Shown here piece after piece: positions 7,221-50,300 of a DNA stretch of 64,000 nt (position 1 is its first letter; the number at the start of each line of letters is the position of its first letter). A program made the position numbers and the translations under genes. Source of the stretch: Takakia lepidozioides (lineage: Eukaryota; Plantae; Bryophyta); the NCBI GenBank assembly GCA_030704615.1, contig CM060731.1, positions 11,160,001-11,224,000 on the forward strand, given 5' to 3'. The notes beneath the pieces were generated by a model. That model saw only the letters and a list, made by a program, of their open reading frames with translations, was not told the origin of the DNA and ran no database searches.

Positions 7221-7222
7221 TC

Positions 7223-16600: not shown

Positions 16601-16617
16601 GCTCATCTCTCTCGAGT
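16601..16617 (-). promoter_or_regulatory. Putative self-priming primer-binding site of copy A
   Basis: Directly abuts A1 and is the exact 17-nt reverse complement of 16800-16816 inside A1. No tRNA-type TGG start. Confidence 0.6.
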
Positions 16618-22816: not shown

Positions 22817-23705
22817 TGGGGACATCAACCTTGGAGCATGGGGGAGGAAATGCATGCTTAGCCCCGCTTAGCTAGCTCATGAATCCGATTGCAAAAACTT
22901 GTATTGTACAAATTTTGTTATAAATGAAATGGTTTCCAAATGTTGTGCGTCTTATTTTGTTTGGAATGGTGATGCATGGTATGGTTGGCTAGTGTGTAGA
23001 ATGCATGCTAGCTTACAAAAGTGGGAGAGGTAAATAGGACGTAGTGCCAAAATCAGGTGACTCCCATCCAAGGGGCAAAGAAACTTGCGCCTTCTTTGGG
23101 AGTTCACGTCCTAGTGCGCACCTAGCGCGTGCGCGTACTATAACTGCCCTACCGAGGGGATTGCCTTGTAGTGCGGGCTAACACGGAAGCTACGTGCTTC
23201 CATTCACGTACTATAATCGTGTAGCCTCGGGATAAAGTCGTAGTGCGGCTTCGGCGTGTTCCCGTCCTCAGGCCAGAATTCCAAGGCGGACCCAATTGTA
23301 GTGATTGGGGCGCACGGTTAGTTCAAGGTTATCTTCCTAGTCAAAAAGGGGTTCAAGGTGAACCCTTGCTCAAGGTGATGCCAAAAGCGGCATCATGAGC
23401 GGTCGCAAGCAATGTTGTTGCAGGAAGGCGATTCGATCCTCGGGGAGGATCGTTCCTTGGCCTTGAAGTAGGCCAAGAAGAGTGCACTGGGTGGAGCTTG
23501 AGAGGCTCCACCCTTGGCCGGGACTTGGAGGAAGTCGGCCGAACTAGCTAGTGGAGAGTAGAGCCAAGTGGGGGTTTGGTTCTTTGCCATGGGACGCCAT
23601 GGTACGGAAATAAACTCCTTGATGTGGGACGCCACAACTTGGATGTTCGTTTCTATAAAATGGACAAGTCGATGAGGACATCGACTCCCTGTTGGTAGGG
23701 GTGTG

Positions 23706-23942
23706 TGTCGTGGCCTTTTGCCTTGAGGGTAGGGGGTCGGGACGTAGAGGGGTTGCCCCTGTGGTGGGGGCGGTGGCAGCGATAGGTGCCGGGGGCTGAA
23801 GCACCCTTGAGTGCCCAAGGCACTCAAGGAGGCGGAGGCGCTCACTAGGTGGAGCCCCACACACCGGTTGGGAGTTAGGAGCGCACATCAAAGCGAGTAA
23901 CTATGACTTGAAGGGGAGCTTACCGAAGTGAGGTGCGCGACA
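23706..23942 (+). repeat. Chromovirus LTR2 (internally deleted, 237 bp)
   Basis: Follows purine-rich GGTAGGGGTGTG, starts TGTCG, ends GCGCGACA. About 1 kb missing versus LTR3. Confidence 0.75.
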
Positions 23943-25027
23943 GGAAGTCAGTTATTGTTCGTGAATGGGATAATTTCCGGAACTGACGTGTCGTTGTTGG
24001 TAGACACAGGAGCGTCGCACTCCTTCATGACACCGGCAATGGCACAAAAACTGGGGCTCCCAACAAGTGACGTGAGGGCCTCTATTGAAGTGCGTTCTGC
24101 CAAAAAAGAACCACAACTAGCGACGAGGTTGGCGTTCGATGTTCCTCTTCAGCTAGGAAGTTGGGAGGGACGTGAGAACTTCACCATTTGCAAGATCGAT
24201 GGAGTGGATCTCATTTTGGGGATGACCTTTTTGAGCAGATCCGGAGCGGGATGGCTGCAAGAGAATAGTCACGCTACCGTGTGGGAATGGTGGCGAAGTT
24301 TTATGAGTGTCGGAAACGCCCAACCCAGTAGGAGGGTGAATAAACCTGTTGTCAGCAACGGAGTGGGCCGTGGAGGAGTCACACGAGCCCCAGTTTTTGC
24401 TTTACGTAAGAGATGTGAAGGGAGAAGGCGACAGGGAGTCGAGCCCGGATTGGATCAAGGGGATTTTGGAGAAATACCAGGATGAATTGCTAGAGGATTT
24501 ACCAAGTGGCTTGCCACCGCGAAGAGGAGTTGACCACAAGATTGAGGTGATACCGGGATCGGAGCCGCAGAGAGTTGGTCGAGCTGAAGGCTCAGCTCAA
24601 GGATCTAATGTCAAAAGGGTACATCCGGCCGAGTGTACGGAGCCCCGGTGCTATTCGCAGACAAGAAGGATGGGAAGTTGCGGATGTGTGTCGATAATAG
24701 GGCTCTGAATAAGGTGACCATAAAAAACCGGTACCATTTGCCAAGGATCGACGACCTCTTCGATCGGTTGGCAGGAGTGAAGTATTTCAGCCGGATCGAT
24801 TTGCGCTCCGGCTACCATCAAATCCGAGTGGCGGAAGGAGATGAGGAGAAGACCGCATGCAGGACAAGATATGGTTCATATGAGTTCTTGGTGATGCCTT
24901 TTGGGCTCACCAATGCACCCGCGACCTTTAACACGCTAATGAACAACCTTTTCCAGGAGTGGTTGGATGATCTTGTGATCGTGTACATCGACGACATCTT
25001 GGTGTACTCAAAAACAAAGGAAGAGCA
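23943..25027 (+). pseudogene. Chromovirus protease and RT N-terminal part
   Basis: LLVDTGASHSF; DLRSGYHQ; [27 protein letters not shown]; [12 protein letters not shown], interrupted by the CACTA. Confidence 0.9.
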
Positions 25028-27027
25028 CACTAGAAGAAAAACGTGGAATAACCACTCTATTAACCACTCATTATGAGTGGTAAAAGACACTAAACCATTT
25101 TGGCCCCAGAGTGATGAAGAACCAGTGGATTAGGACAAGTGAGTGGTAAAAGACATTGCGTGGCACTATTGGTTAAGGTCAGTGGTTCAAACCACTCACG
25201 TTCGGGTCCACCTGTTAGCTGACGTGTCACAGTGGTAAATTAACTTCTGTGACATGTCAATGACGTGTCACAAAGGTAAACTAACCACTTATGACGTGTC
25301 ACAGTGGTAAACTGACGTGTCATAGTGGTAAAGTAATGACTTCCGTTTTTGCAGTGGACACGTGTAAGCCGGTGGTCCGTGGATGATATTGGAGATTATG
25401 TCGACACGTGACGACACTCTCAGCATAGACACATGTTGTGTGTCAGTGCTACAAAATAGATAGAGTGAAAAATTCAATGACTTCCGAAACCACTCGTTGA
25501 GTGATCACGAAATGACTCATATAGTCATTCTATGAAAACTGAGAATATACAATATCATTCACAGCATGGTTATGTGAGTAGATGACGTCTCTTAGCAGAT
25601 CATTGGAGTGATTACCCACAGAGTGGTATGTAAACTGTTTGAGTCATCCATGGTGTCTCTCTGAGTGGGAACTATGGATTGGAGTGATTACTAACAGAGT
25701 GGTGTGTAAATGATTAGGAATACCACTGGAGGAATCCATACCACTAATACAGTAATATATAGGTGATTACTTATACCACTATATGAGTGGTATTATGGGC
25801 AATTGTGTGCATTTGGCTACTCCCACAGTTTTAAATTATACCACTATTACAGTGATGTGCAAGTGATTATGAACATGACTAGAGGAACACATACCACTAA
25901 TGTAGTGAAAGAAGTACCATTGGGGATTCAACCTCTACAAAATAGAATAGAATCCCAGAGAGTAAGTGCTGGAACATTGTCAACAAAATCCAGCCATGAT
26001 AAAAGTCTGAGCCTAACTTCTACATGGCCTCTCTGCATGCATGCTAGGAACACTGAACTCATGCCTTAAGTTCATGAAGTTTTTGCCTCAGTTGTCCCAC
26101 CATTGACTGGGGTCAGAAAAGTATTCATTCCACAGCTTCTCCTCGTCTCAGCTGTTACCTGTTTCTGGATACTTCCCTATTGTCACATTGGCAGTACCAT
26201 GTCAAAGTCGCTCCAAACTATCAAAGGCTCACACAACCAGCTAATTTGCAGAATTCAACATGAAAATTTAGGGCCTATTTTGATAAGAGGGAAAAAACAG
26301 GGTGAAATGTGTTGAAGAATGTGCCTTCATTACCAGTGCCTGAGTTTATCAACGATGCAATGGCGTGAGCCTTGCGCGTGAGCGCGCAAGCATACGCTCA
26401 CGCAGGAGTGACGTGGCGTGAGCGTGCACCTACGCTGACGTGGCGTGAGCATGATGTCAGCAGGCTGATATGATGACAAATGCTGATGTGGCATTGCGCC
26501 GTCATTTGTCACGTCAGCATGGACATGCGCCGCCTATAATCGAGGATGGTCTTATGACCGTGGGATTAATGCAAGGAATCCTTGGCTGAATACAATGAAG
26601 ACTACCATGGGGCCTACAATTGTAGCATCCAACATTGTGCAATTACAAATGTTTGTTTCACTTTTACAATTACAAGGACAAGAAAATATCCTCACAAAGT
26701 ATGCGCCATAGAGGCTGCCACGGGAAGACCTAGCTCCCTCCCCAAATAACAATGAGAGTTAGGATCATCTTCAAAAGATGATGGCATTGCATAGCGACAG
26801 GAAAACATGTAGACTTCGAAAAGTGCAATGATGCATATGCTTTTAAAAGTTGTCACTTAGAGCTCACTCAGTATAGTTGGAAGCATAATGAAGGGATAAG
26901 GGACGTCATATCATTGCACCGCCGACGATGTTGCAAACGAATTGATTTGAATTGAATTTCCATGACAATGTTGCAAATTGCACATTTTATAGCATGGTCG
27001 TCCACATATCACATTGCATAGCAGATG

Positions 27028-28144: not shown

Positions 28145-29200
28145 CAAAAAAAAACAAAAAAAAACAGAAATGATGATCGGCGGCACCGACCATCGTATCC
28201 ACCCAAATGCCAAATGTCAAAAGCCACCTTAAATTTATTTAAAAACAAAACAAAAAAATAAAATCAAATAGTGATGATCGGTGGCACCGAAAGAAGTGAT
28301 TGTCGGCACCGGCCATCACATCCACCCAAATGCCGAATGTCAAAAACCAAAAAATAAATAAATAAATGATGATCAGCCATAGTGACAGAAGTGATGGTCG
28401 GCATCGACCATCGCATCCGCCCTAATGCCGAATGTCAAAAGTAAAAAAAAAAAGATCGGCGGCACTGACAGAAGTGATGGTCGGCACCGACCATCACATC
28501 CACCCAAATGCCGAATGTCAAAAGCCAAAAGAAAAAGAAAAAATAGAGAGTGGTGATCGGTAACAGAAGTGATGGTCAGCACTGATCATCACATCCACCC
28601 AAATGTCGAATGTCCCAAAAAAAAAAAAACGAAAAAGAATGATCGGCGGCACCGACAGAAGTGATTGTCGGCACCGATCATGGCATCCACCCAAATGCCG
28701 AATGTCAAAAAATTAAAATTTAAAAAAAAAATGATGATCGGCTGCACTGGCAGAAGTGATGGTCGGCACCGACCATCGCATCCGCCCAAATGCCGAATGT
28801 CAAAAGCCAATTAAAATTTATTAAGAAAAAAATAAAAAATAAACAAAAAGTGATGATCAACGGCACCGACAAAAGTGATGGTCGGTGCCGACCATCACAT
28901 CCACCCAAATGCCGAATGTCCCAAAAAAAAAACAGAGAGTGATGATCGGCGGCACCGACAGATGTGATGGTCGGCACCCAAATGTCGAATGAAAGAAAAG
29001 TATTTAAAAAAAAATGATCGGCGGCACCGACAGAAGTGATGGCCGACACCGATCATCACATCCATCCAAATGCCAAATATCAAAAGCAAAAAATAAAATA
29101 AAAAATAAAAATAAATAAATAACCAGAAGTAATGATCGGCACCGATCATCACATCCACCCAAATGCCGAATGTCAAATGCAAAAAAACAAAAAAAATTAT
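28145..29200. repeat. Tandem array of about 10 imperfect ~90-120 bp units with a hairpin core and A-rich spacers
   Basis: Unit GATCGGCGGCACCGACAGAAGTGATGGTCGGCACCGACCATCACATCCACCCAAATGCCGAATGTCAAAA followed by an A-rich tract. Confidence 0.9.
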
Positions 29201-29420: not shown

Positions 29421-29700
29421 CGTACACTTCCAGCTTTGGTGATGCAACCATGCACCTCCGATGCCCTTTTCCAGGGCTGCCAGGCTTGCACACGCACTGC
29501 AAACGCACACAAACATGATGTGGTCGAACTTCACCCCTTCCCCCATCATTTGCTTTCAGGTCTCCAAAGCCCCATACAGCGCCCCTGCTCTGCACACCCC
29601 GTAAGCATCACATTCCACAATACCACATCTCATTCAGCCATAGTGTTGAACACTCCCTTGGCATCCTCAATGCTACCATATTTGGCATACATGGCCACCA
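29421..29700 (-). pseudogene. PLS-type PPR fragment
   Basis: MYAKYGSIEDAKGVFNTMAE*DVVLWN...EVHGCI; homologous to 44790-47330. Confidence 0.75.
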
Positions 29701-32610: not shown

Positions 32611-32777
32611 ACAGAGACAGCCTCATTATGCAATGCAACTATTGTCTCCCAGCTTTTCTACCACATCACGAAGACCCCCTAAAAGAGTATGCGGCACCGC
32701 ACACTGCAACCACCACACACAAAATAGCCTGAAGGGCCCAGGGTATGCACGTTGGTGTTACTACACACGGATAGAGC

Positions 32778-33133
32778 TGTCAAGTTAAATAAACACAGTG
32801 TGAAACTAACTAGAATAAATCTAGTTTTTTGTATTTAACACTTGGATTTAGTTCAAGTGTTAAGTCAGGTGTCAAGTTTAGTTTGACACCTGAACCGTCT
32901 TATCTTCACGAGAGCGTCAGTCGTGCGGCTCATCTCTCTCGAGTTGAGCCTGCACGACCGAGCTCCTTCACTGCTTAGAATCGGAGTGTGCTTATGAAGG
33001 GAGAATAGGATGTTGTGGGGTGGAGTCCCCATAGCTTGGGGTGCCCCTGGCTCGACTCTTAGTTTTAATGAGTGATTGTGTTGTGTTGAGTGTTTCTTTG
33101 TTATCAGACATGTGAGTTTAGTTATTTCAATCA
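32778..33133 (+). repeat. Copy B 5' terminal repeat A1 (356 bp)
   Basis: Matches 43264-43619. Confidence 0.92.
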
Positions 33134-33149
33134 CTTGAGAGAGATGATC
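33133..33149 (+). promoter_or_regulatory. Putative self-priming primer-binding site of copy B
   Basis: ACTTGAGAGAGATGATC is 15/17 complementary to GCTCATCTCTCTCGAGT at 32928-32944. Confidence 0.55.
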
Positions 33150-33507
33150 TTGCATCTGTGAGTGCCAGAGGTGAGTTTAGTTGTAGCACTTGTGGTTTTT
33201 GTTTTGAAAGTGAGAAAAGAAAATTATGGTGGTTTGTAGATTATGTTTGTGACAAGCTGGTTGAGACAGAGAAGCGATTATCTGTGTTCAGGTAATCTTT
33301 AGTTAGAAAGATGTCAAGTTTGGCCACTGGAGCGATGGTTAGAAAGCACGGTGAAGCCTTCTACTGTCTATCAGCTTTGTCATCGTTGTTGCCATCAAAA
33401 GGCTGACGGTGTGACAATGGCGGTGCCTTCCAGTGCCTAGGTTGAACGTACATGCCAGCACCTGGCATCGTCGGAGCATACTGGTCACCACCAACCTGTG
33501 CATTATG

Positions 33508-33769
33508 CGCCACCGTCGGTGCGGAAGCCGATGACGAAAGAATATCCTTCTTGCTAAAGGAGTTGGATGGTAAAGATATTACGGAGGTGATTGCTTCCGG
33601 TAGGGAGAAGTTTGCATCTATGCCATCAGGCGTAGGCGGCGGCGGCGGTGTTGTGGTGGCTTCCTCTGGTGGAGGTGGAGATGGAGGTGCTGCTGCTGCA
33701 CCTGTTGGAGAAAAGGAGGAAAAGAAGGAGGAGTCTAATGATGACATGGGTTTCAGCCTTTTCGACTAA
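33508..33769 (+). pseudogene. RPP2: Captured 60S acidic ribosomal protein P2 fragment (N-terminus missing)
   Basis: [39 protein letters not shown]...[13 protein letters not shown]. Confidence 0.88.
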
Positions 33770-33944
33770 GCTTGGGATGCAGTTTTGCAGCGCATCCGAT
33801 GGTTACTTTGATGCTATCTCAACTGCATGTGGCTGTTGAGCATTACTTAACAGTCGTTTTATACCTGCGCTGGTGCTGGTGGAGGTGACGCCATCGCCAC
33901 AGGAGCACCTTGCTTTATCCTCGGGGCGGCTGCTTGTTCTTCAG

Positions 33945-34065
33945 CTTATGTCTTCAACCTCCTCCAGATAGTCATTGAAGTCTCGAAGTGATGAAAACCC
34001 GTCCTCTCGTTTATTGAACAAGTTCTGAATTTTCCGACGCACAACAATCTCCTTGTTCATTTCGC
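33945..34065 (-). pseudogene. Captured MAT1 (CAK assembly factor) fragment
   Basis: KEIVVRRKIQNLFNKREDGFSSLRDFNDYLEEVEDI. Confidence 0.75.
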
Positions 34066-34229
34066 AGTGTTCGGCTTGTCCTTCTTGATCAACGCACTCT
34101 CTCAGACATTTCTGTGCTCTCAACTCCAAGCTAGGAAGAAAGAGGAGCAAAAGCTGGGGGCTGGATTCCGGAACTTGGTCGCAGACGGGCATTTGAAGAG
34201 GCCTTCATGAGTATGTGGATGAAGATAGC

Positions 34230-34830
34230 TGATATTGGAGAAGGTCATAAGTTGCATGAACCACAACCAAAGTTCCCTGCTTTGTGGTGGCACTCATGCA
34301 GAATGATTCTACCCCTTGTGATCTCAATGTCTTTTGAAACATGGGCCAGCAATCTGCTGCCTCTGGGATATCCATCTTGTTGTAAGCCACTACGTGTGGT
34401 TTAAGTGCCAAGTTGGCGTTGAAGAGCTGCAGCTCCAAGCGCACTGCTTCATACTCCTGAACAGCTTGCACACTTGTACCGTCCACCACCTGCACTAGGA
34501 CACGGCAATGCTCTGTGTGACGGAGGGACTCATGGCCCAAGCCCCCATGTGCTCTTCCAGCAGGCCGGGTAGATCAGCCACCACCATTGATGTGTCAAAA
34601 TCCAATGCCACTACCCCTAAGTTGGGCAGCAGTGTAGTGAAGGGATAGCTGGCAATTTCAGGGCGCACAGCACTGATGGCACTCAAAAGTGTGCTCTTGC
34701 CAGCATTTGGAACGGCCACTATGCCCACATCTGCAACCAGCTTCAGCTCCAATTCCACCCACATTTCTGCACCCTCTTCGCCATTTTCGGCCATCTGAGG
34801 AGTCTTGTTGCGACCAGTTTTGAGGCAGTG
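34230..34830 (-). pseudogene. Captured Obg-family GTPase fragment
   Basis: [23 protein letters not shown]; [11 protein letters not shown]; DLPGLLE; [15 protein letters not shown]; NKMD. Confidence 0.88.
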
Positions 34831-35599
34831 TTGCCTCACCCACCCCGACCTCCCGGCAGCAGCAGCTCCTGCTTCCCTGGAGTGGTCAATTCCAGCAGAA
34901 CATCTCCATTCCTTTAGTCTTCCCAACGCCGTGGCAACTCTGTGTTGACATTGGCTTCACCTGCTTTAGCCTTGGAAAGCTATTATGAAGGTTTGAAGAA
35001 GGCGTCCAAGGAATTCTTAGGGAACCTGCAGTGAATCGCAAAAAACGTGGGAACAAGGAACCAAAGGAAACCAATTGAAAATAGTTTTTCCTTGTATTTG
35101 TGTCTATTTAAGGTCATATATTATATTTACAGAGCCTCTTTGGCCATATCTTTGTCATATGAGCTCCGTTTGACACAGTTTTTGAAGGGATAGCTGTAGA
35201 AAGGGGAAATCTACCTACCTATTTAGTTTTTTGGACTCTGCTAAAAATCTATGGAATTTTTTGAGTGTGAGTGTGCTATGAAAGATCCACAATTCTGTTT
35301 CTAGAACCTGTTGTGGTTTACATGAGAGACAAATATGTGGATGTCCTCCTTATATGGCTGGGGGAAATGATGACGTAATTGAAGGGTCGGTGGTGAGGCT
35401 GGAGTGATGACCAGCAAGACCACCAGTGTTTCTTCTATGGTGAGGCTAGGTTGATGACCAGCCAACCATAGGAGTTCTTGTGGTGGATGCACGTGCACAT
35501 GCCCTGAGCCACTAGGATATGACCCTTAAACTGCAACAGGTGCCCACCCGTGTCACTATTAGAATTAGTACTAGAGCCTTATAGTGTCACGTAGGGGAG

Positions 35600-37300
35600 G
35601 TGCACGTTATGAGTGTCATCACGGAGTTACCCAAGGGTTTTGAGGGGAGTACGGCTACAGGCAGTCGCAGTGAGAGTGGGTTCACAAGACGAGGTATTCG
35701 GTTCAGACCACCTTCACCTCCACCATCAACTACTGTAGAGTCTGACACAGACCTGGAGGCTTCATCAACAGGTGTGCAGTTTTCTTCGCCATTATTGTGG
35801 GACGACATGGAGGAGATGTATGGAGCTACTAAGGGGCCTCGTAGGTACTCTGGAGCTGTGGGCACAATCGAGCTGGATGACTTTATCCAGGAGTTCGACA
35901 GCTGGTGTGATTTGCAGCAGATGCGCAATCCACAGCTGTTCACTCCATTCATGGCGTGGAAGGGATTGTTCCAGCATTTTGAAGGCCCGCCTATGGATGA
36001 TTACCACGAGTTCAGGCGAGGATATGAAGCAGAGATTGAGGAGTGGCGGATGTATTGGTCACCTGACTACGTCTCCATTACTCGAGGAACAACGCGACCA
36101 GTAGCGACATCAGCACCAATACCTCCCACGGCCAGCACTAGTAGTGGAACAAGTAGTGCTGGTACTTCTGTAGAAGGTGCTACTACTCCTTCTGCCACGA
36201 CTACAACACATGTGCCTAGATTCAGCCCGGTGGTGGAGTTCTTCCAGGAGTTGCGGAGAAACTACCAAGGTGTACGGACAGAGAAGCTGCGAAGTTTGTA
36301 AGACTTCCAGCGCAAATCCAGTGAGAGCCTGCGAGAGGCCTACACTTGTATGAGGCGCTTGATAAGTGTGACCCAAGGGGTTACTGAAGCTCAGGCAATC
36401 CAGTTCTGGTATGGAATTTTGGACAAGGCGCTCAGGAGAAGGGTGCGGGATACAACCCTGTTACAAGCAACCCAACCCACATTAGCAGATGTGTTTCTAC
36501 TGGCTGAGCGGATTGAGCTCAACATGCTGGAGGAGCGTGTTGTTACCATTGGATTTGGCAAGGACATGCCTGCACGAGGCGCAGCTGCCAGCCCATAGGC
36601 ACAGGGGACTGCCCAACAGCGTGGGCAGGGGGGCAAGGTTTCCCAACCCAAATTCCATGGAGCTTACAGGGGACCTCAGGTGCAGAGGCCAGTAGCATCT
36701 TTTGCAAGCCAACAGCAACCAGGGGTGATATGTTGGACATGTGGAGGACCCCATGTCAAGAAAGATTGCCCAGAGAGTGGCAAAAGGTCGGCACAAGCAC
36801 AGCCTACATAGTTGCAGTGTGGGCATTGTGGCAAGTATGGGCATGGAGATGCCCGGTGTTATGACTTGCACCCTGAGTTGCAGCAAGGCCAGTTCCAAGG
36901 GAACAATGGTGGCCGAGGGCGAGCTGGAGCACCTCAGAGAGGACGAGGTGGTCAGGCACGAGGTGTAGGACGAGGGCAAGCACAGTATGGCCAAGGACGT
37001 GGAGACCAGGGCGTTGACCAAGGCATGGCCAACCGGCTTCAGCAACTAGAGCCAAGGCTTGCTGCCATGGCCACAACTCAGGTGGTACCAGCTCCAAGAC
37101 CTGAGGGTCCACCTCATGTTCCTCCTTAGCAGCGTCATCCTGACGGAGGAGACATGGGAGGCATAGGATTTATGTGTGGGGCAACACTACCATTAGTGCA
37201 GGTGGAGTCTGCTGCAGCCGTCACTCGAGGAGCAGCACGAGTTCCTGAGCCACGAGGTGCAGAGGTGGAGTTAGATCCACATCGTGGGGAGGCAAGCCAT
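35600..37300 (+). pseudogene. Copy B gag with two CCHC knuckles; premature stops
   Basis: Homologous to A 11318-13067. Confidence 0.87.
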
Positions 37301-37799
37301 TAGGCTAGGTTGCCTCAATCATTCACCTTGGGGGAGATAGTGTCGACGACATCCATGGCACCTAATTCCCGCCCGACAGATACAGCGGCCGTTATTGTGC
37401 CATTGGGGAGAGCTACACGTGTAGCACTGACACCTGTTGCCAAGGCTAGTGTAGCCAGTGCGTTGTTGGGGGCAGCCACCTCTGTGTGTCAAGCCCCACT
37501 GTTCTCGGCGACCATGATCGCGACGCCAGGGGTAAGACCAGCTGCAGTGTTCAGACTAGCAGCAACACTCTGCGAGAGTGGGGAGGTCACTTCATCTTCT
37601 GCGGAGTTGGTGGAAGGTGTAGTGGCAGAGGAATCCTCGGATTTGAGGGTCAAGACTGCCACAGCTGCGCCATGGCAAGCTGTAGCTACCAGGTTGACGG
37701 AGCTGTCAGCTAGGCCAGCCTTTGAGCGCGCCATGGTAACACCTGGAGTTGTCTTGTTAGACAACCAGGATGTCATTTTCTCTTTGAGTGGACCGGCAG

Positions 37800-38190
37800 G
37801 CAAGAGGTACCGGCCACTGCGGGTCTTGTTGGACTCGGGAGCTCAGCCACTGATGTTGGGCAGAGCTGCTATTGCATGTTTGGGCCTCATGGAGGCGGAT
37901 ATAGAGCCTTTTCTTTTTTAGATACAGACATCTCTGGGAGGATCAGAGCAGGCTCGGGGCATGACACGGCGTGAGTTGGCCATTAGACTACAGCCGGATC
38001 ATCCTATAGATGGCTCAATGATGCGAGCCAAGATGTGACAGATGCGGTCTCTTACGATGTCCTTGTTGGTGGGGCGGTGTTATATCCTATGGGCTTCACC
38101 CTGGATTTTTGGGAGGAGTCAGCATCCTACAGGCCTGGATGGCAGTCAGGGGATGAAGTACAACTCCCTGTGACATTCATTGGGGGTGTT
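37800..38190 (+). pseudogene. Copy B aspartic protease
   Basis: RVLLDSGAQPLMLG; YDVLVGG. Confidence 0.85.
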
Positions 38191-38529
38191 GCTGCTGCCC
38201 AGCGGGGCAAGATGCCAACACTAACAGCCTTCACAGCTGCAGTTAGTTGGCATGGAGAGTTGCTGGAGGGCAATGCCCATGCAGAGGATGTGCCACCTCC
38301 AGCAGAGCAGGATGACATGCATGGTACGGCGGAGTTGTCTGCTATGATTGCTCACACTCCATTGTGGGATACGAGCAAGGATTTGCAGCAGGCTGCTGAT
38401 AGACGGGTGCAACAAGCCTGGGTAGAGGCCTTTGTACCGTCAGGAGAGGAGGAGAATGCGGTGATTGCACCAAGACCACCTGAGTTGTCGCCATTGGACA
38501 CCACACCTCTTGTGTGGCAGTGCCCGGAT

Positions 38530-39490
38530 GAAGGCACATGCCTTCTGGACTTGTTTGGCGGGATGAACACTGGATTGGCTGCATTGCTGCAGGCAGGTGT
38601 ACGAGTTTGACGTTACCTGGAGAGGGATGAGACTGCACGACGCATCTCACTGCGCCATGTTGCTCAGTTGGTGCAGCAGTATCCTGATTTGTTGCCAGTG
38701 TCTGCAGTTCGTGGATACCAACAGGCATTGCCAGCCGACATCTCTTTGCTGGGGGCGCATGATTTGGAGCGGGTTGACCCTATTCACTTGGTAGTGGCAG
38801 GTTGGCCTTGCCAAGGGCATTCATCAGCCGGGCATGACAATGGGTTACAAGACTCAAGGTCACGCCTGTTTTGGGAGATATTGAGGGTCCTACGCTATTT
38901 ACAACTTCAGCAGACAGACTCTCCGGCATATATCTTGGAGAATGTGCCATTGATGGGTGATTCTCGGGCCAAGGTGATGGCCAGTGTGCATCAAGTGCGG
39001 TCTTGGCTTGGGTTAGCAGTGTTGCTGAACGCAGCTGTAGTGGGGTCACGGGCTCATCGCCCACGACTATGGTGGACCAACTTGATGCCACCTGCACTGC
39101 TCAAGCGTGCATTTGATGGGGTGCAGCGGCCACCACACCTGACGGTGGATAGCATTTTGGACATAGGGAGACAGTCTCAACGTGTGAGACATGATGACCG
39201 ATCACCTTTGGCAGTGGTCAATAAGGTGGGTCACCCACAAGCCGCATTGCCTACACTGCTTAGCTTTCCAGGATCTCATGCTTTTCGGGATGGTGGACAT
39301 GGCCTCTTGTGGGATAGCCAGTTGCAGTAATTAGTAGAGCCCAATGCTGACGAGCGCAAGCGGGCGATGGGTTTCACCACTGGTACCACGGCGGTGCCCT
39401 CTTTTTCTGAGGCATCACGTCGTCAGGTGTTGGGGCAAGCAATGGATCTCAATTGCTTGACCTGGATTATCAGCTTGGCTATGGCTGAGC
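38530..39490 (+). pseudogene. Copy B DNMT3-like C5 cytosine methyltransferase with all major motifs; frameshift ~38610, TAA at 39328
   Basis: I LDLFGGMNTG; IV LVVAGWPCQG; VI YILENV; VIII GSRAHRPRLWWTN; IX ERKRAMGF; X RRQVLGQAM. Confidence 0.92.
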
Positions 39491-39780
39491 AGCGCAGAGT
39501 ACGGAGTACACTTCCCTTGATGGTCTCCCTGCCTACCGAGATGGTACAGGCAGCCAGTGGGGGCGAACAGGTGAGGACCACGAGGTGCATGCCGCATCCA
39601 TGGCACACGTGGGAGGTGCTCGAGGTTCAAAAGGAGTTGGCAGCCAAGGTGGCGGTAATGGATGAGGTTGGGGATTTTTCTTGGGTTGAGGAGGTCCTCA
39701 AGGATGGGATGATGGGGCAGGATGAGACATTGTCACTGACAGAGGAGGCAGTGATCACTGCTCAAGAGGTTGCAGCATAG

Positions 39781-42700
39781 CAACCACGGGACGCGTCTTC
39801 TACCTCTAAGCCTGCTGGACTCAAGGTTGCAGTCACGAAGGACAACTGGGAGCCTGATGTTGGACCTATAGTCACCGGAGGAGAGAAACGACGTATACGG
39901 CGGTTCTTGAGGGCTTACAGGAACTGCTTTGCCTTCAGTTTGAAGGACTTAGGAGCACTGAAGGGTCAAGAGATTCGCATTGAATTGGCTACTGACACGC
40001 CAATCTTTCGGAGACCCTATAGATACAGTGACATGGAGAGGTCTTTGATTCAGATGAGAACTCAGGACCTTTGGGGGCTGGTTTGGTGGAGCTATCTGGG
40101 GGAGAGTATGCTTCAGCCACAGTGATGCCAACCAAGAAGGATGTCTATGGCAATTGGACGGAGAGACGTATGTGCGGTGATTACCGGCCTGTAAATCGTC
40201 AGACCAAGTTCGATAGGTATGCCATGCCGACACCAGATGAGATCTTTGATGCCATTGGGCATGCCAAGGTCTTTAGCACTTTGGATTTACGATCCGGATA
40301 TCACCAATTGCCGATCAAGGAGGCGGATAAGCAGAAGACGACATTCTGGGGGATCAATGAGCACGGGAAAGATTGCCTATACCAGTGGCGGTTCTTACCA
40401 TTTGGGCTTAAGAATGCTCCGGCAGAGTTTTCAGAGAGTCATGGACAAGATTCTAGCAGGGGTGGAGTTTGCTCGGTGCTACATAGATGACATCATCATC
40501 TTTAGTGCTACGGTGGAGGAGCATGAGAGACACCTTCAAGTGGTATTTGAGCACTTGAGGGCGCACGGATTGAAGTTACATCCGGGGAAGTGCAAGTTTT
40601 TCCACAACCAAATTGAGTATCTGGGTCACATGATATATCTTGGAGGATTGGGGGTACAGCAGACTAAGGTAGAGGCCATTGCACGGATTCCACGCCCCAC
40701 GGATGTGAGCCGAGTTCGAGCTTTCATGGGGTTAGCAAACTATTATAGACGGTTTGTTAAGGGATTTAGTGCCATTGCAAAGGCTCTAACCAAACTGACC
40801 AAGATGGACCAGGAGTGGCAGTGGGAAGATGAGCAAGAACAAGCTTTTCAAGAGCTCAAGGCGAGGTTGACCTCGGCGCCCATCTTGAGACGACTTATCA
40901 GGGGGCGTCCTTTTCAGCTGCATACAGATTGGAGCATGCTGGGGCTTGGAGCGGTGCTCACATAGGTGGATGATGAGGGAAGAGAGTTCGTAGTGGCTTA
41001 TGCTAGCCGCTCGAACAACACTGCAGAGTCTAAGTATAGCTCATATGAGGGAGATTGCTTAGCTGCAGTGTGGGCCGTGGCACACTTCAGGTGCTATCTA
41101 TACGGCAATCTCTTCACCCTTGTCACGGATCACCAACCACTCAAGTGGTTGATGGAGTCAGACAAGCTTACGGGGAAGCTTGCACGGTGGGCACTCATCC
41201 TTCAAGAGTATGACTTTCAAGTTGTGCATCGACCGGGTTTGGTCAATCGGGATGCAGATGGGTTGAGTCGCAATCCATGCACGAGCCAGCAGGATGACAC
41301 TAGAGCTCGGTGGCATGGTGAGACGGACGAGGAGATGGTGCCTGGATGGCATGCATCTGCATTTCTGTGTATCTTGGCAGCGGAAGGCCAGGTTGGACCT
41401 GCAACAGGGATGACTGTAGATCAAGTGTCTGAGGACCCTGAGGCCAGCAATGAGCAAGGTGGCGCCAAAGATATACATGAGGATTCAGCTGTGTTGGACT
41501 ACCTCCGCACTGGAGACACGACAGCCACTGTGACTGCCAAGGAGAGGGATCGGATCCTACAACGAGCCAAGAGGTTCAAGTGGGAGGGGAGACACCTGCT
41601 CCGAGTGTGGGAGGATGGTCAAGTGAGGATTGTGCCTCACCCAACACAGCGGGCACGGTTAGTGCGGCATGCCCATGAGGAGTTGGGGCATTTTGGGGTG
41701 CGACGCACTCATAGTCTACTGCAGGGGCAGTATTGGTGGCGTGGTATGCACACAGAGGTGCAATAATTTGTGGCTAGGTGCATGGTGTGTGACAGGGTGC
41801 GTGTTTCATTCAATGCCCCTACTCCACAATTGCACCCTCTTCCGATCATAGGATTGGGCTACAGGTGGAGTCTTGATTTCGCAGGGCCGTTGTCACTAAC
41901 CATGCGCCACAACAAGTACGTGTTGGTGATGGTGGAGCACTTCTCCAAGTGGATCGAGTTGGTTCCATTGCATGATAAGGCTAGTGAGGGAGCTGCGTAT
42001 GCATTCTTGGATTGTGTACTTAGCCGATTTGGTACTCCAGCTGAGGTACTCACGGACCAAGGGAGAGAGTTCTTGGGGGAGTTTTCAGGCTTTGTGTGAC
42101 AAGGCCTTGGTAGACCACCGCACCACTTCTCGGGATCATCCTGAGGCCAATGGCTTGGCAGAGAGGGTTGTTCAGACAGTAAAGAGGGGTTTGCGCAAGT
42201 ATGGCTTGCAGAAGGGACACCTAGGAGATTGGGACCTTCAGTTACCCTGGTTAGCCATGGGCTATAGGTTCAGCAAGCAAACATCACTTGCCTCATTCTC
42301 ACCATACTTTCTTCTCTTTGGCCGAGAGCCGGATTTGCCTACATCCATTCGCAGAGAAGCTGCTATAGTTCTTAACCTTGACGATCCGGACGTCTGGGCA
42401 CGTGCATGTGATCAACGTGCAGAGTTGTTCAAGAAAGTCGTGCCCATGGCTTTCGAGAACCTTGCCATTGCACAACATCGTGATACGTTGAGGTATGCTA
42501 CCATACGTGGTGGGGGCTATCGTCATGGGGTTCGAAGATTCAACCCTGGTGACTATGTCTATCTGCAGCAGACTGCTCCTACGACCTTGGATGTGACTGC
42601 AGGACGTATTATTTTGAGGGTTCGAGAGGTCTTGCCCTCAGGCGTCTTGATCTTGGAGGGTCGGGATGGCATAACTTGGAAGGACCATGTGCGTAATTGT

Positions 42701-42916
42701 ACGTCATGTCACCTTCCGAATGTCGATGGCAGGATTGACCCAAACCTGGCAGTGGTACCTGCAAGTTTGAGGTGCATGTTGTGTGGGTCTGCTAGAGGGG
42801 CAGCTACCATGCTGGTGTGTGATCGATGCTCTAGAGGTTGGCATATGGGATGCTTGACTCCACCTCTTGAGATGGTTCCTGATGGGGATTGGTTATGTCC
42901 GCATTGCATTGGATAG
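39781..42916 (+). pseudogene. Copy B RT-RNase H-integrase-PHD
   Basis: YIDDI, TDWS, DDE residues, C4HC3 PHD at ~42773-42910; several frameshifts and stops. Confidence 0.92.
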
Positions 42917-43162
42917 TGGGAGTGGATACAACCATGGAAGGCTAACAAGAAATGCAGGGCCAAGCTACTAGGAGACCTTGAACACACGAGATCCTGGCTC
43001 AAGTTCACAGATTGCAAGACGGCGACTAACGATGGGGCTACTCTTGTACCCGGCCTCTTGGTCTATAGAGTTTGAGTACAATAGGGACAGTGATAGAGGA
43101 CTTAATACAGCTGTGGCTATTACATCTTGTAGCTATCTAAAATTAAAGGGACCTATCCACCA

Positions 43163-43705
43163 GCTAGGGGGGCGATTGTGGCAGACTACTTTATTGTGCA
43201 TATATGTGTGGTGTAGTTTGGACAACGATGTAGTTGTGTAGCGATACGTATGCGCACGACAACTGTCAAGTTAAATAAACACAGTGTGAAACTAACTAGA
43301 ATAAATCTAGTTATTTGTATTTAACACTTGGATTTAGTTCAAGTGTTAAGTCAGGTGTCAAGTTTAGTTTGACACCTAAACCGTCTTATTTTCACGAGAG
43401 CGTCAGTCGTGCGGCTCATCTCTCTTGAGTTGAGCCTGCACGACCGAGCTCTTTCACTGCTTAGAATCAGAGTGTGCTTATGAAGGGAGAATATGATGTT
43501 GTGGGGTGGAGTCCCCATAGCTTGGGGCGCCCCTGGCTCGACTCTTAGTTTTAATGAGTGATTGTGTTGTGTTGAGTGTTTCTTTGTTATCAGACATGTG
43601 AGTTTAGTTCTTTCAATCATTGTGGCAGACTACTTTATTGTGCATATATGTGTGGTGTAGTTTGGACAGCGATGTAGTTGTGTAGCGATACGTATGCGCA
43701 CGACA
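43163..43705 (+). repeat. Copy B 3' terminus: PPT ~43164-43176, B1 43177-43261, 2-nt spacer, A2 43264-43619, B2 43621-43705
   Basis: 85-bp B repeats; junction GACA-AC-TGTC. Confidence 0.93.
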
Positions 43706-44789
43706 GAGCAAATGTGTGTGCGGCACCGCACACTCATATGAGCCAGCACAAAACAGGTTGGATGGAGGAGATGTATCTTTGCAAATCAAAGAAGCATGGT
43801 CTATTTCGCATCTGTAAAGGCATCGTTTCTAGGCTTCCTCTCCTTTCTCTTGCTGGTCAAGCTCATTTGTTCGACTGATGCCACCCTCTTTGTTGAACTC
43901 CCTGAAGAAACAAGATTGCCACACTGTGGCTCTCCATTTCCGCATGTATGCTTGGAAGGAGACCTTCGGTGCTGTCATGGTGATGTCATAGTCAGCCAGC
44001 TGCGTATGTAAAACAGACTGGGCTCTTTCCTCCAACTGCAAAACAACTTGAATGCAAGAATGAACTAGAAATCAATCACAACCAATGTAACATGGAAAGA
44101 GAACGACAAAAAAGCGAAACGAAAGTGACACAGCAAAAGACATCATACCTGGCTCCAGTAAGTGGTCTTGTGAAGCCATGTGTCCATCATATTGTCACTG
44201 ACAGGAATGACACGCTGGTCTTCTTCTCTTTCTCCGGCCTGGGGAACATGTGGATATCCCTAACAGTGGGATCGGAGTTCCATATTTGTAGCCACTTCAC
44301 CTTCTATTATGAAGACACAATGGCGGTAGACAACCTGTGTAACTTCTCCTGGGCCATCTCCGGCTTGCCTGGCTTGTTGTAATGGTTTTTCACCTCTTGA
44401 AGAAACTGCGGTCCGAATGATGGGTCGGCAATTCTCAACTGCTTAACAAAAGCACTCATAATAGTCCGTCATATGTAATCTGTTCCACATCTACGTCGTT
44501 CTGACATTGCGATGCCCAGCGCGAACCTGTTATATTGGTGTTTTCCGAAGCAGGTCGGTGATAAAAGCATTCGAAAACTGTGAGTGCGAATATTTTTCCT
44601 AGCTCGATAAATAGGCTTACTGGAATACTACAGCTCTACCCCTGAGGAGAGAAGGACAACAAAGGGGGTTGAGAGTCACATCAAGCAAGAGATGACCGCC
44701 ACAGCAGTGGGCCTTGTTCTATCAATTGCGCTGCTACCATTGCTGTTTCCAGTTGACCATCTACCCACTCGTAGCCGTTGTGTTGTTGA

Positions 44790-47330
44790 AGAAGGTGCCC
44801 CCCCTTCCCCCATCATTTGCTCATAGCTCTCCAAAGCCTCCATCCCACGTCCCTGCCGTGCATACCATGCAAGCATCACACTCCACGACACCACATCTCG
44901 TTCAGCCATAGTGTCGAACACTCCCTTTGCATCCTAGATGCACCCACATTTTGCAAACATGTTCACCAGGGTTTTGTTCACGATGACATCTGGTACAATT
45001 CCAACTCTGAAGATGTCGCCATGGACCTCTTTCCCCTAAGTTGCCAGGGCAGTGTTCAGATTGACATTTGGCACAATTCTAGCTTTGATGATATCCCCAT
45101 GCACCTCTTGCCCTTCTCTAGGGCTGCTAGGCTTGCACAAGAATTGCAAATGCACACAAACATGATGTGCTTCCCCCATCCTTTGCTCATAGGTCTCCAA
45201 AGCCTCCATCCCACGTCCCTGCCGTGCATACCTTGCAAGCATCGCACTCCACGACACCACATCTCGTTCAGCCATAGTGTCGAACACTCCCTTTGCATCC
45301 TAGATGCACCCACATTTTGCAAACATGTTCACGAGGGTATTGTTCAGAATGACATCTGGTACAATTCCAACTCTGAAGATGTCGCCATGGACCTCTTTCC
45401 CCTTTTCCAAAGCTGCTAGGGCAGTGTTCAGATTGACATTTGGCACAATTCCAGCTTTGATGATATCCCCATGCACCTCTTGCCCTTCTCTAGGGCTGCT
45501 AGGCTTGCACAAGAATTGCAAATGCACACAAACATGATGTGCTTCCCCCATCCTTTGCTCATAGGTCTCCAAAGCCTCCATCCCACGTCCCTGCCGTGCA
45601 TACCTTGCAAGCATCGCACTCCACGACACCACATCTCGTTCAGCCATAGTGTCGAACACTCCCTTTGCATCCTAGATCCTAGATCCCTTTGCACCCACAT
45701 TTTGCAAACATGTCCACCAGGGTATGGTTTAGAATGACATTTGGTACAATTCCAGCTCTGAAGATGTCGCCATGGACCTCTTTCCCCTTTTTCCAGAGCT
45801 GCCAGGGCAGTGTTCATAATGACATTTGGTACATTTCCAGCTTTGATGATACCCCATGCACCGCTTTGCCCTTGTCCAGGCTCGATGCACCCACATTTTG
45901 CATAAATGTCCACCAGGGTATGGTTCAGAATGACATCTCTTTGCCCTCGTCCAGGCTCAATGCACCCACATTTTGCATACATGTCCACCAGGGTATGGTT
46001 CAGACTGACATTTGGTACAATTCCAGCTCTGAAGATGTCACCATGGACCTCTTTCCCCTTTTTCCAGAGCTGCCAGAGCAGTGTTCATAATGACATTTGG
46101 TACAATTCCAGCTTTGATGATACCCCATGCACCTCTTTGCCCTCGTCCAGGCTCGATGCACCTACATTTCGCATACATGTCCACCAGGGTATGGTTCAGA
46201 CTGACATTTGGTACAATTCCAGCTTTGATGATACCCCATGCACCTCTTTGCCCTCGTCTAGGCTCGATGCACCCACATTTCGCATACATGTCCCCCAGGG
46301 TATGTTTCAGACTGACATTTGGTACAATTCCAGCTCTGAAGATGTCGCCATGGACCTCTTTACCCTTTTCCAGAGCTGCCAGGGCAGTGTTCAGATTCAC
46401 ATTTGGTACAATTCCAGCTTTGATGATATCCCCATGCACCTCTTTGCCGGCGCCCTTCTCCAAGCCGGCTACCAGGCTTGCACAAGCATTGCAAATGCAC
46501 ACAAACATGATGTGCTTCCCCCATCATTTGCTCATAGCTCTCCAAAGCCTCCATTCCACATCCCTGCTGTGCATACCCTGCAAGCACATCATATCGCACT
46601 CCACGACACCACATGTCGTTCAGCCATAGTGTCGAACACTCCCTTTGCATCCTAGATGCACCCACATTTTGCAAACATGTCCACCAGGGTATTATTCAGA
46701 ATGTCATCTGGTACAATTCTAGCTCTGAAGATGTCGCCATGCACCTCTTTCCCCATTTCCAAAGCTGCCAGGGCAGTGTTCAGATTGACATTTGGCACAA
46801 TTCCAGTTTTTATGATATCCCTATGCACGTCTTGCCCTTTTCCAGGGCTGCCAGGCTTGCACGCACATCGCAAATGCACACAAACATGATGTGCTTCCCC
46901 CATCATCTGCTCACAGCTCTCCAAAGCCTCCATCCCACGTCCCTGCCGTGTATACCCTGCAAGCATCGCACTCCACGACACCACATCTTGTTCAGCCATA
47001 GTGTCAAACACTCCCTTTGCATCCTAGATGCACCCACATTTTGCACACATGTTCACCGGGATATTGTTCAGAATGACATCTGATACAATTCCAGCTCTGA
47101 AGATGACGCCATGGACCTCTTTCCCATTTTCCAAAGCTGCTGGGGCAGTGTTCAGATTGACATTTGGCACAATTCCAGCTTTGATGATATCCCCATGCAA
47201 CTCTTGCCCTTCTCCAGGGCTGCTAGGCTTGCACAAACATTGCAAATGCACACAAACACGATGTGCTTCCCCCATCATTTGCTCATAGGTCTCCAAAACC
47301 TCCATCCCACGTCCATGCCGTGCATACCCT
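44790..47330 (-). pseudogene. Tandemly amplified PLS-type PPR pseudogene (units ~366-372 bp plus a sub-array of shorter units)
   Basis: Repeated MFAKCGCI*DAKGVFDTMAERDVVSWSAML..YA.QGRGMEALE..GKEVHG. Confidence 0.88.
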
Positions 47331-50300
47331 GGACCAAGCTGACTCTCCCAAGAACCTTGTAAACATCAGCGAGGACTTAAGTGTGCAACAACGATAAGGC
47401 TTAGTGCTTGAGGGGAAGAAAAAACATCGCATTGGTCCATGAGAACCACCATGGTGCAGCTAAGCGAGCAGAGATTGAAACACGACCTGCTAAGACCAAG
47501 CTGATTCTCCCAAGAACCTTGTAAACATCAAGAAGACCAAATCATGGTGCTAACAGGAGCCAAAAGCCCACATTTGCAGGATGGACAAACTTCTTCACAT
47601 CCTACATTAAGAAAAAGCCACACCTTTGCGATTGCGATTGTCCCACCATCATGAAGGATCTGTAAAAAACTCATGCGAGCTCTACTCCGTGCTGCAAATT
47701 TAGGGCCGAGTCTGATGAGAGGGCAAAACAGGCTGAAATAGGTCGAAGAAGAAGGTGCCCTCACCACATTGTCGTCGACCTTGTGTCATGACCCATGGAG
47801 GATTTGACAGACCATGAACCCAAACGGACCTCTTGTGTGTGTTGCTTGTGTCTGTAGTCAGGTAATGTCGGATTGTCCATGAGAACCACCACGGTGCAGC
47901 ATCGCGAGCAGAGATTGAAACGCGACTTGCTAAGACCAACCTGCACGAGGACTTAGTGTGCACAGCAACGATAGGGCTTAGTGGGGCTTAGTGGGTAGGG
48001 AATTCCAAAAAGGCCTTGATGTGAAATGCATTGCAATTCACTTGATCACCTAGGGAATTCCAAATAGGCCTTGATGTGAAATGCAGCGCAATTCACTTGA
48101 TCAGATGCCAATTCAATTGAACTAACCCTAATTTGCAATTCAATTGAATTGCTGACTGCAATTCAATTGAATTGTAATCTATAATTTTTAACGCAGTTTT
48201 GTATATAATATATTATCATGTGTATGTATATGTATATGTATCGTATACACATATACATACGAGAGTATAAGATGAATATACATGCTGGCCCGTCTATTCC
48301 TGCTGCCCGTCCATCCTTTGCTTGTGGTAAGGCCTAAGTCACGACATGAGTCGCGTACCCTAAAGGAGAGATATATACTAGAGAGAGAGCGAGAGGGGAA
48401 AGGGAGAGAGAAATGAAGTGATGAAGGGTTTTTAGGGCAGAGGTGCCCTAAAAGTGAAAGGATCAAATCAGTTGGAGGACGAGAAGTAACGAGAGAAGAA
48501 TGCAACAACAAGTTTAGGGTTGAGCGGTGGTGGAGCGGTGGTGGCGCTATGTATGATGGAAGCCTTCTTGGATCACCAAATGACAAGATCTGCCCATGAG
48601 TAAGCACATTCCCATATTGGCATGAGTTTCCCCAATCATTGATAAAGATATCATTTTAGCTAAAGCTGTAGTTCTTGTGTACGTGCAGGTGACTCATGAG
48701 TTTTGAGGAGAGAACTTTAGGGGTAGTAGAGTGGGTTACCAAACGCTCCTCAACACATACACTGAAAGAAAGAGCTTGATCACATGGTTTGTCTTCAACC
48801 TGCCCACACTGTGTACTGTGGTTTGCTAATATATTTTAGGATAGCCTGCGCATCAACGACCCTGAGAAATTTTTGTGTATCAATCTCTTCTGAGGATGAG
48901 TTTGACTGGTGGGTGTTGCTTACAATCTAAATATGTTAGCATGTTTCATCTGCACCTTGAGACACTAACCAATTTCATACTGCCAAGCCCTTATAGTGCC
49001 AATATATGGCTATGTACATATACCAAACATGATACCACTGTAAGAGTATCAACGTCTAAGAGTTGATATATTAAACTCTCTATCGAACACACAGCCCAAT
49101 TGCAACATGATACCTTTGCAAGGGTATCGAAACAAGATTATTGGAGATAATTCTCGAAATGAACATGTCTTTTGTTTTCTCTGGGGTTGTGTCATGGGGG
49201 CCAGATACTAGTGCCAGGGGAGTACATGATGATGCAGGGGAAGCCATTCATCAATTGTGAGGTTTGAAATTGTTTGTTTCCTTCAGAGGTAGCCATATAT
49301 CTTTTGCCAGTGAATCAGAGGAAGCTGAAGCACTTCTGAGTAAGCCATCTGTCTCCCAAAGGGTCCCCCAAAAAATGAGATGGAGCTAGCCCTGGCATGC
49401 ACATCAAACCCATTTAGCTCACAAGCAGTTTAAGGAGGTTTGCATAAACATTTGGCCAAGGTTTGAGGGCTTTGCCTCATTCCAACAACAATATTTACCA
49501 AAGCACATAACGTGCTTGTAATAACACTCGGGCTGCATGTGGGGTTCATGGGATGCTGAATGGAAGTTGAGGAATTTGAAAGGCTGGAGTGGGAATCGAG
49601 AGCATGAATGCTAAGTTCTACAATAGTGATGAGATTATGGTTGTAGTGCAACGTTGTAGTGGGTTTGTTATTGGCAGCCCAACACTTGCAAGCCACATGC
49701 CCACTCCTATGAAGGTGTGACTGGTGATCTAGTGACCAGTCACTTAGTCAAACCAGCGATACGCAGGCAGTGGGTAGAGTGGTGGATGAGCAGCACATGG
49801 AGAGAGGTGTGCACATGGAAGATCAATGTCAAGTCCATATCAGCCCCTATGCCAAGTTATATTGCTTCCTCTTGTGGTCAATACCTCTACATTCTTTTGT
49901 ACTGGAACCGCAGATTGATTGAAAAGCACATGGACAACGGTCTGCACAGGAAGATCACTACCAAGTCCATATTAGCCCATACGCAAGTGACCACTTGTAG
50001 CAGACCTCTAACCTGCTTCATGACTGGTGATTCCGTTGTTCCTCAGATGTGGGAATCATGCAGAACATAATTCATCAACTAAGTTCTTTAAATCTTCCTC
50101 TTTGTTGCGGGATACTCAGATTGCAAACAACACGAGCAAAATGAAAACACGGGGCTATGAAGGAAGGAAGCAGATCGGATGGTCGTTCAGGACCATATTC
50201 AAATTCCAAAAGTTGCAAGAAATGGAAAACAACAAAATGCAGGTCAACTTCTCATGTATCCAGGCATTGCCGTGGACTCACTCACTCAATCACTGAGATT

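Follow-up and report, generated by a model that had tools for sequence, protein, structure and literature searches.

Gypsy retrotransposons that carry a DNA methyltransferase (DNMT) domain are already known (de Mendoza et al. 2018, PMC5890265). KnitGypsy-Dnmt3 of Klebsormidium nitens, the closest described element, has the Gypsy domain set and an unpermuted Dnmt3-related domain in its coding region, as does the element analysed here; it is reported to have a Ka/Ks below 0.2 and, again as here, DIRS-like repeats in the order A-coding-B-A-B (PMC5890265). In yeast, the domains of SymbioDIRS-Dnmt3 carried out de novo CG methylation and the DNMT of KnitGypsy-Dnmt3 gave no methylation, a result its authors call inconclusive (PMC5890265). 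The role of these retrotransposon-borne enzymes was left open in 2018 (PMC5890265), since experiments in the algal hosts are difficult. Such elements in 'streptophytes' are also mentioned in a preprint (bioRxiv 10.64898/2026.05.21.726589) and by Sarre et al. 2025, who cite de Mendoza et al. 2018.

The DNA studied here (the window, a stretch of 64,000 nucleotides in full) comes from Takakia lepidozioides and carries copies of a split-repeat Ty3/Gypsy element:

32778-43705, + strand: copy A, full-length, TGTC...GACA, with the duplication GAGC at 32774-32777 and 43706-43709
33150-35040, unstranded: leader cargo specific to copy A, made of host-gene pieces without interruptions, from acidic ribosomal P protein (sense), MAT1 (antisense) and Obg GTPase (antisense)
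35798-37300, + strand: copy A Gag, a capsid-like region and two Cys/His knuckles, stop-broken
37720-38130, + strand: copy A aspartic protease, LLDSGAQ at 37826, with one stop and one frameshift
39781-41260, + strand: copy A reverse transcriptase and RNase H, YIDD at 40480, frameshifted
41540-42760, + strand: copy A integrase, with H2C2 finger, DDE core and C-terminal part
42773-42913, + strand: copy A PHD finger at the integrase C-terminus (PF00628, E 1.5e-10)
5039-16966, - strand: copy B, full-length, laid out as copy A, inserted in the copy C integrase with an ACAA duplication; leaky stop at 8959-8957
14680-16330, - strand: copy B leader cargo, a SURNod19-like coding sequence (E 4e-35), then an A-run
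16971-20667, - strand: copy C 5' part, with the protease end, a cut-down DNMT (~19990-19214), RT-RH and the integrase start
4062-5034, - strand: copy C 3' part, with the integrase end, PHD, polypurine tract and B1-A2-B2
60491-62524, - strand: copy D, gag to protease start, with no DNMT within the window

The domain order protease (PR), reverse transcriptase (RT), RNase H (RH), integrase (IN), the DDE integrase, the TG...CA termini, the 4-bp duplication and the polypurine tract (PPT) are those of Ty3/Gypsy, while twin identical terminal LTRs are replaced by split repeats in the order A-body-B-A-B. We rejected chromovirus identity on the PHD that stands in place of a chromodomain at the integrase C-terminus, Troyka identity (described with CG...CG termini and a 3-bp duplication, PMC12440569) on the TGTC...GACA ends and 4-bp duplications, and DIRS-order PAT/Ngaro identity on the presence of an rve integrase, with no tyrosine recombinase match in the two ORFs of a related locus, L022, or in the six-frame leaders of copy A, copy B (cargo part) and another relative, L015. 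The RT-RNase H of copy B is an open frame of 577 codons, its gag matches PF03732 weakly (E 2.5e-4), and copy C belongs to a diverged subfamily (68-81% to copy A). The three DNMT-bearing copies of the window (A, B and C) are all dead; none is intact.

The leader cargo of copies A and B sits between repeat A and gag and differs between them. In copy A it matched the Pfam families of acidic ribosomal P protein (PF00428, E 5e-17), MAT1 (1e-12) and Obg GTPase (8e-12). The cargo pieces look like captured spliced mRNAs, and the leader of L015 held no host-gene cargo. Copy B also has about 1 kb of extra leader (13272-14304), in which one long frame is almost open and Pfam gives no match. Elsewhere in the window, tandem frameshifted PPR-like repeats of ~370 nt lie at 44669-47430 and 29422-29700, with weak PPR matches, and a 73-nt unit occurs 10 times at ~95 nt spacing at 28168-29196, each ending in an A-run.

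The methyltransferase itself is laid out as follows:

38521-39498, + strand: DNMT3-like C5 cytosine methyltransferase domain of copy A, motifs I-X unpermuted in one frame, with stops at 38608 and 39328
38548-38562, + strand: motif I, DLFGG
38611-38628, + strand: motif II, RYLERD
38800-38820, + strand: motif IV, GWPCQGH
38938-38946, + strand: motif VI, ENV
39052-39081, + strand: motif VIII, AHRPRLWWTN
39352-39375, + strand: motif IX
39433-39447, + strand: motif X, GQAMD
9190-10140, - strand: copy B DNMT, from which an 88-nt deletion took out motif IV (PCQ)

The initial annotation of this DNA had proposed a DNMT3-type enzyme in unpermuted order, and had named PF00145 as a check. Copy A scored above the gathering threshold of that family, with E 2.2e-12 for the stop-free part only and E 4e-12 (46.6 bits, cut-off 22) for the domain with stops written as X, and its motifs I-X stand in standard order. 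Among solved structures compared by sequence, the 29 best were DNMT3A, DNMT3B and DNMT3C (top E 3.9e-9), and M.HhaI came next at 7e-5. The structure was modelled not on copy A but on its natural stop-free relative L022 (49% identical); the AlphaFold model had a mean pLDDT of 90, and its top Foldseek matches were DNMT3B/3A (E 8e-19, TM 0.70 by query and 0.79). The domain is genuine and of DNMT3 type, nearer to DNMT3 than to other C5 methyltransferases in both sequence and fold, as had been proposed. The unpermuted motif order ruled out a DRM, and a host plant DNMT3 was ruled out by the position inside an element with target duplications and by the lack of any DUF3444 match when the whole ORF1 of L022 and of the related protein P0023 was scanned with Pfam. 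Two comparisons that bear on a viral source were uninformative about descent: in a protein-cluster atlas, phage and streptophyte C5-methyltransferase clusters scored equally against the domain, and 17 IMG/VR loci matched it over part of its length only (best E 3e-11).

A further claim, that the domain occupies the same position with all its motifs in three copies, stood in its first half: the PR-DNMT-RT position is shared by A, B and C, but the motif set is not. Copy A has the two in-frame stops (38608 and 39328) and a 6-nt deletion inside motif II; copy B, without motif IV, has no PF00145 match at E 0.01; and copy C is broken by several frameshifts and by the deletion of motifs IX-X, the linker and the RT start. 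The stop at 39328 is common to A and B, so that a defective parent is possible; a mutation hot spot is tentatively favoured, since the same codon is a stop in three further loci (L010, L011 and L013). The best sequencing run gave 13,275 contig records on 1.7 kb. Among the 40 listed of 207 differences from copy A, none alters the Cys or ENV codons, and transitions prevail, which is what decay of one copy in an abundant family would produce.

The initial annotation had also described the enzyme as embedded in the polyprotein. It does lie between protease and RT, but a conserved TAG (39778-39780) splits it from RT, within this feature:

39778-39786, + strand: TAG CAA CCA, a type I (UAG-CAR-YYA) read-through signal that closes the Gag-PR-DNMT frame, in frame with RT

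Sequences of the form UAG-CAR-YYA are classed as type I read-through motifs (PMC3542737), and the signal in its TMV context gave 6-10% read-through in stable Arabidopsis lines (PMC2754532). TAG CAA CCA occurs alike in copies A and B, ~93 codons past the DNMT and in the RT frame; in the window, only 5 of 1435 TAG stand in this read-through context. A metagenome scan yielded 33 loci, most of them Sphagnum-protein-like by eye, and stop-CAR-YY was found at the junction in all 24 of the 24 loci with an uninterrupted junction (17 TAG, 7 TAA), which include repeat assemblies of one locus and so represent a lower independent count. The full YYA was present in 4 of the 24, including L022 and L025 (TAG CAG TTA) and L026 (TAG CAA TCA); moss-type loci fall short of it with CAA CCC. 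L022, L025 and L026 are distant relatives whose linker proteins are otherwise unlike those of the window, and the signal is still there. L022 presents the intact design, with 1369 codons of Gag-PR-DNMT, TAG CAG TTA and 1047 codons of RT-RH-IN-PHD. Many database proteins stop 57-181 residues after the DNMT, and in a few (P0027, P0042 and P0204) the DNMT is fused to RT with no stop between. Because stop-CAR-YY after the DNMT is conserved, the DNMT closes the Gag-PR-DNMT frame rather than belonging to Pol. The stop is likely leaky in this element, judging by its sequence context, and the DNMT would then be made about as frequently as Gag. The initial annotation noted neither this stop nor two features described below, a self-priming site and an att-like junction inside the element.

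The DNMT is under purifying selection. Between copies A and B its dN/dS was 0.168 (292 codons), with 0.204 for RT-RH, 0.316 for the integrase core and 0.305 for gag; between A and C it was 0.14, and among the stop-free L022, L025 and L026 it was 0.142, 0.12 and 0.10. Most cross-lineage dS was saturated, and those values were left out. Pairs of decayed moss-type copies gave 0.38-0.75, like their own RT (0.44-0.49). Comparing dN/dS across copies had been suggested as a check, and the window values (0.14-0.17) are well off 1; together with the fixed place of the domain in distant relatives and the single clade seen whether the tree is built from DNMT or from RT, they support the earlier view of a core domain rather than cargo.

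A protein search returned 29 relatives, the named ones being from Marchantia polymorpha (57-74% identity), Calypogeia fissa and Sphagnum; no Klebsormidium-named protein was among the database matches to the DNMT. A profile search returned 408 clusters at E<1e-30, and among the best 150, those with a second domain mostly carry retrotransposon domains. Sorted by domain order, 257 DNMT proteins comprised 63 PR-DNMT-(RT), 132 RH-DNMT-IN and 62 with the domain alone. In midpoint-rooted FastTree trees, from which rows without a second domain or with <290 residues were left out, the PR-DNMT type formed one clade both for the DNMT (31 of 110 rows, support 0.97) and for RT-RH (6 of 46 rows, support 1.0), and the window copy joined liverwort and moss-type sequences (support 1.0). 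Catalytic PC is present in 44 of the 63 PR-DNMT-type proteins and xC in 14 more; DNMTs of the land-plant clade carry PC, and relatives at 46-94% identity retain the SAM loop together with the catalytic Cys, ENV and the Arg of motif VIII. The family had been called unusual for land plants. Land-plant relatives do exist in Marchantia, Calypogeia and Sphagnum, but two things make the family less unusual than suggested: its wide occurrence in bryophytes, and a domain content and repeat layout in common with KnitGypsy-Dnmt3.

The DNMT domain has changed position within one PHD-Gypsy lineage. A second, larger PHD-Gypsy group has the same DNMT clade between RNase H and integrase (the 132 of 257 proteins above); its named members include Haematococcus and Cymbomonas, and P0029 and P0031-P0033 belong to it. 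The DNMTs of this group often have EC for PC and are often missed by PF00145. Many of the proteins have an extra C-terminal domain that looks amino-methyltransferase-like by eye; the 'DAM' label on it denotes self-similarity to P0029/P0032 only, and four proteins carrying the labelled domain had no adenine-methyltransferase match in Pfam.

The ends of copy A are as follows:

32778-33133, + strand: repeat A1, 345/354 identical to A2, likely comprising the promoter-proximal part of U3, R and U5
33134-33147, + strand: predicted self-priming primer-binding site, complementary to a site inside A1
43166-43176, + strand: polypurine tract directly 5' of B1
43177-43261, + strand: repeat B1, 86/87 identical to B2, TG...CA
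43258-43268, + strand: internal junction GACA-AC-TGTCA (right end, 2 nt, left end), a predicted att site
43264-43619, + strand: repeat A2
43621-43705, + strand: repeat B2; the A2/B2 joint varies by copy and is a predicted end-joining scar

The A-body-B-A-B layout is shared by copies A, B and L015, and all four copies with both ends (A, B, L015 and L016) have TGTC...GACA termini and are flanked by 4-bp duplications (GAGC in A, ACAA in B, and AAGG and CACA). No tRNA-type primer site (TGG start) lies directly after A1. The primer-binding site there is perfectly complementary to the middle of repeat A over 11 nt in copy A, 17 in copy B and 16 in L015, each matched in 0 of 2000 shuffles; the stem that it forms with A has a z of -5.9, and both stem strands differ between the window family and L015. 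The joint between B1 and A2 reads GACA-NN-TGTCA in A, B, L015, L022 and L026, and GATA-GC-TGTCA in C. By itself the 11-nt pattern does not exceed chance (2 matches against 0.96 expected); what gives it weight is where it lies, at the repeat boundary. The A2/B2 joint is unlike in all five of five copies, and in L016 it retains 9 nt of the primer-binding site. Two loci, L009 (11637-11748) and L013 (6946-7057), end at B without A2-B2, which could reflect either B1-B2 recombination, insertion of a one-LTR circle or insertion at the other att site.

Taken together, the self-priming stem, the PPT, the 4-bp duplications, GACA-NN-TGTC and the variable A/B joint point to a two-LTR circle that would integrate at an internal site. 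The element RNA would prime itself on the stretch after repeat A, and the polypurine tract 5' of B would start the plus strand, so that (B+A)-body-(B+A) DNA results. Joining of its ends would form a circle, and the integrase may then nick after CA on each strand of the upstream GACA-NN-TGTC site, so as to insert the element as A-body-B-A-B. The ends left by nicking after CA are those of processed retroviral DNA. A strand jump that adds B, with no circle, could also account for this arrangement. The repeat anatomy accounts for DIRS-like ends on a Gypsy element and predicts a productive circular intermediate.

We looked for a trace of the enzyme's activity in the CpG content of the elements. Relative to a codon-shuffle null, silent C|G at codon boundaries was 0.36 in A, 0.36 in B and 0.34 in C, and 0.35 in L022, 0.61 in L026 and 0.07 in L001. 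The control, a single chromovirus family without a DNMT, is represented in the same window by two copies, at 0.85 and 0.69:

21217-25076 and 56617-60306: chromovirus copies with chromodomain PF00385, CpG controls

Both chromovirus copies show CWG depletion instead of CpG depletion. In L001, a nearly intact element, 6 silent CpG were observed where 89.5 are expected. The silent CpG loss fits CG methylation in the replicating line. However, the host-like cargo (0.51-0.57) and the window as a whole (0.55) are CpG-poor as well, so host methylation alone may explain the loss in the element. Recent C-to-T differences between A and B are equal in CHG (0.067) and CG (0.073), as expected from host silencing.

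We hypothesize, with moderate confidence, that in intact elements the DNMT is made in bulk with Gag, packaged, and methylates CG in the element's new cDNA before insertion. The initial annotation had likewise inferred packaging and methylation of the element's own cDNA or circle, for which the Gag fusion and the CpG depletion relative to one control family give indirect support. Most ribosomes would stop after the DNMT and a minority would read on into RT-RH-IN-PHD; the protease would free the DNMT inside the particle, and the enzyme would mark the element's DNA, which could then enter the genome already CG-methylated like host DNA. Against this proposal stand the lack of yeast activity of the Klebsormidium domain (PMC5890265), the incomplete signal of moss-type loci, the TAA at 7 of the 24 junctions and the relatives in which DNMT and RT are fused; bulk DNMT also exceeds what catalysis on one or two DNA copies needs. 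A more far-reaching reading would have an old green-lineage PHD-Gypsy branch, abundant in bryophytes including Marchantia, in which an active de novo CG DNMT in the capsid polyprotein and a circle opened by the DDE integrase at the att site together yield pre-methylated copies; this combined picture is tentative, and doubtful as a whole. If true, it would give plant genomes a second way of methylating DNA de novo.

The excess of enzyme would be explained if the DNMT were mainly non-catalytic, a Gag-fused DNA- or RNA-binding coat that guards or organises the cDNA circle, for which capsid-like amounts are to be expected. The place of the domain before the leaky stop fits such a coat, as do the EC in place of PC in 81 of 132 RH-DNMT-IN and 14 of 63 PR-DNMT relatives and the inactivity of the Klebsormidium domain in yeast (PMC5890265). 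We nevertheless consider a coat unlikely, given the catalytic residues and SAM loop retained across the 46-94% identity range, the PC of the land-plant clade and a depletion that is specific to CpG. Alternatively, an active DNMT may serve self-restraint, with new or existing copies methylated for host silencing, which would limit damage, and the PHD steering insertion to H3K4-unmethylated chromatin. The best PDB matches of this PHD include CHD4, KDM5A/B PHD1, PHF21A, AIRE and UHRF1. The PHDs of CHD4, KDM5, PHF21A, AIRE and UHRF1 read unmethylated H3K4, like the ADD of animal DNMT3. Self-restraint was an option raised by de Mendoza et al. (PMC5890265), and in moss it is DNMT3b that initiates heterochromatic methylation at CG and CHH (PMC6453930). 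The very high abundance of the family, with its 13,275 contig records, speaks against restraint, and we judge it likewise unlikely, although sequence alone cannot separate it from methylation of the element's own cDNA. Finally, that the DNMT is a captured piece of a host gene, as functionless for its carrier as the leader cargo, would suit the host pieces in the leaders and the broken state of all three window copies, but is very improbable and largely refuted by the selection and distribution data: dN/dS is 0.10-0.17 between lineages, the in-frame place is constant in stop-free relatives, the 408 clusters mostly carry retrotransposon domains among the best 150 with a second domain, the DNMT stays constant where leader cargo changes per copy, and the DUF3444 of host plant DNMT3 has no match.

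For the favoured reading, cDNA methylation by a packaged DNMT, the leaky stop narrows the mechanism, since it implies methyltransferase in capsid-like amounts. The Marchantia polymorpha relatives (57-74% identity) bring the question within reach of a genetic model for which methylomes and methylation mutants exist. DNMT-bearing elements also inflate plant DNMT gene counts, and they would be missed by search tools that need twin LTRs.

Compared with known systems, host PpDNMT3a/b have a DNMT3-type catalytic domain, as here, but with DUF3444 (Yaari et al. 2019, PMC6453930), and in host DRM the DNMT3-type catalytic domain is permuted, whereas that of the window is unpermuted (PMC6453930). Tf1/Sushi and Tcn1 chromoviruses are likewise predicted to self-prime without a tRNA (Neumann et al. 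2019, PMC6317226), but unlike the element here they have ordinary twin LTRs and a chromodomain; the consulted text of that survey has 0 mentions of a PHD or methyltransferase. EpiLTRs/DAM-LTRs (bioRxiv 10.64898/2026.05.21.726589) are, like this element, LTR elements with a DNA methyltransferase and a chromatin reader. Their DNMT, sister to DNMT4, occupies the 3' end of pol in elements that also encode a chromodomain and DAM, whereas the window element has a DNMT3-like domain after the protease, a PHD and no DAM. SymbioDIRS-Dnmt3 of Symbiodinium shares the Dnmt3-type domain and A-B-A-B split repeats but uses a tyrosine recombinase, where the window element has a DDE integrase and 4-bp duplications (PMC5890265). 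In the literature searched, neither land-plant members nor the leaky stop nor an att site inside the element are described, and subscription papers, Repbase or supplements may contain them; if true, the integration route is without precedent there among LTR retrotransposons. Set beside KnitGypsy-Dnmt3 by description only, the element has liverwort and peat-moss relatives where the other is from an alga, and it has a PHD, a self-priming site, 4-bp duplications and an att junction, which the passages on KnitGypsy-Dnmt3 do not mention (PMC5890265). In KnitGypsy-Dnmt3 the DNMT lies in the Pol ORF with RT (PMC5890265), whereas here a likely leaky stop stands between the two.
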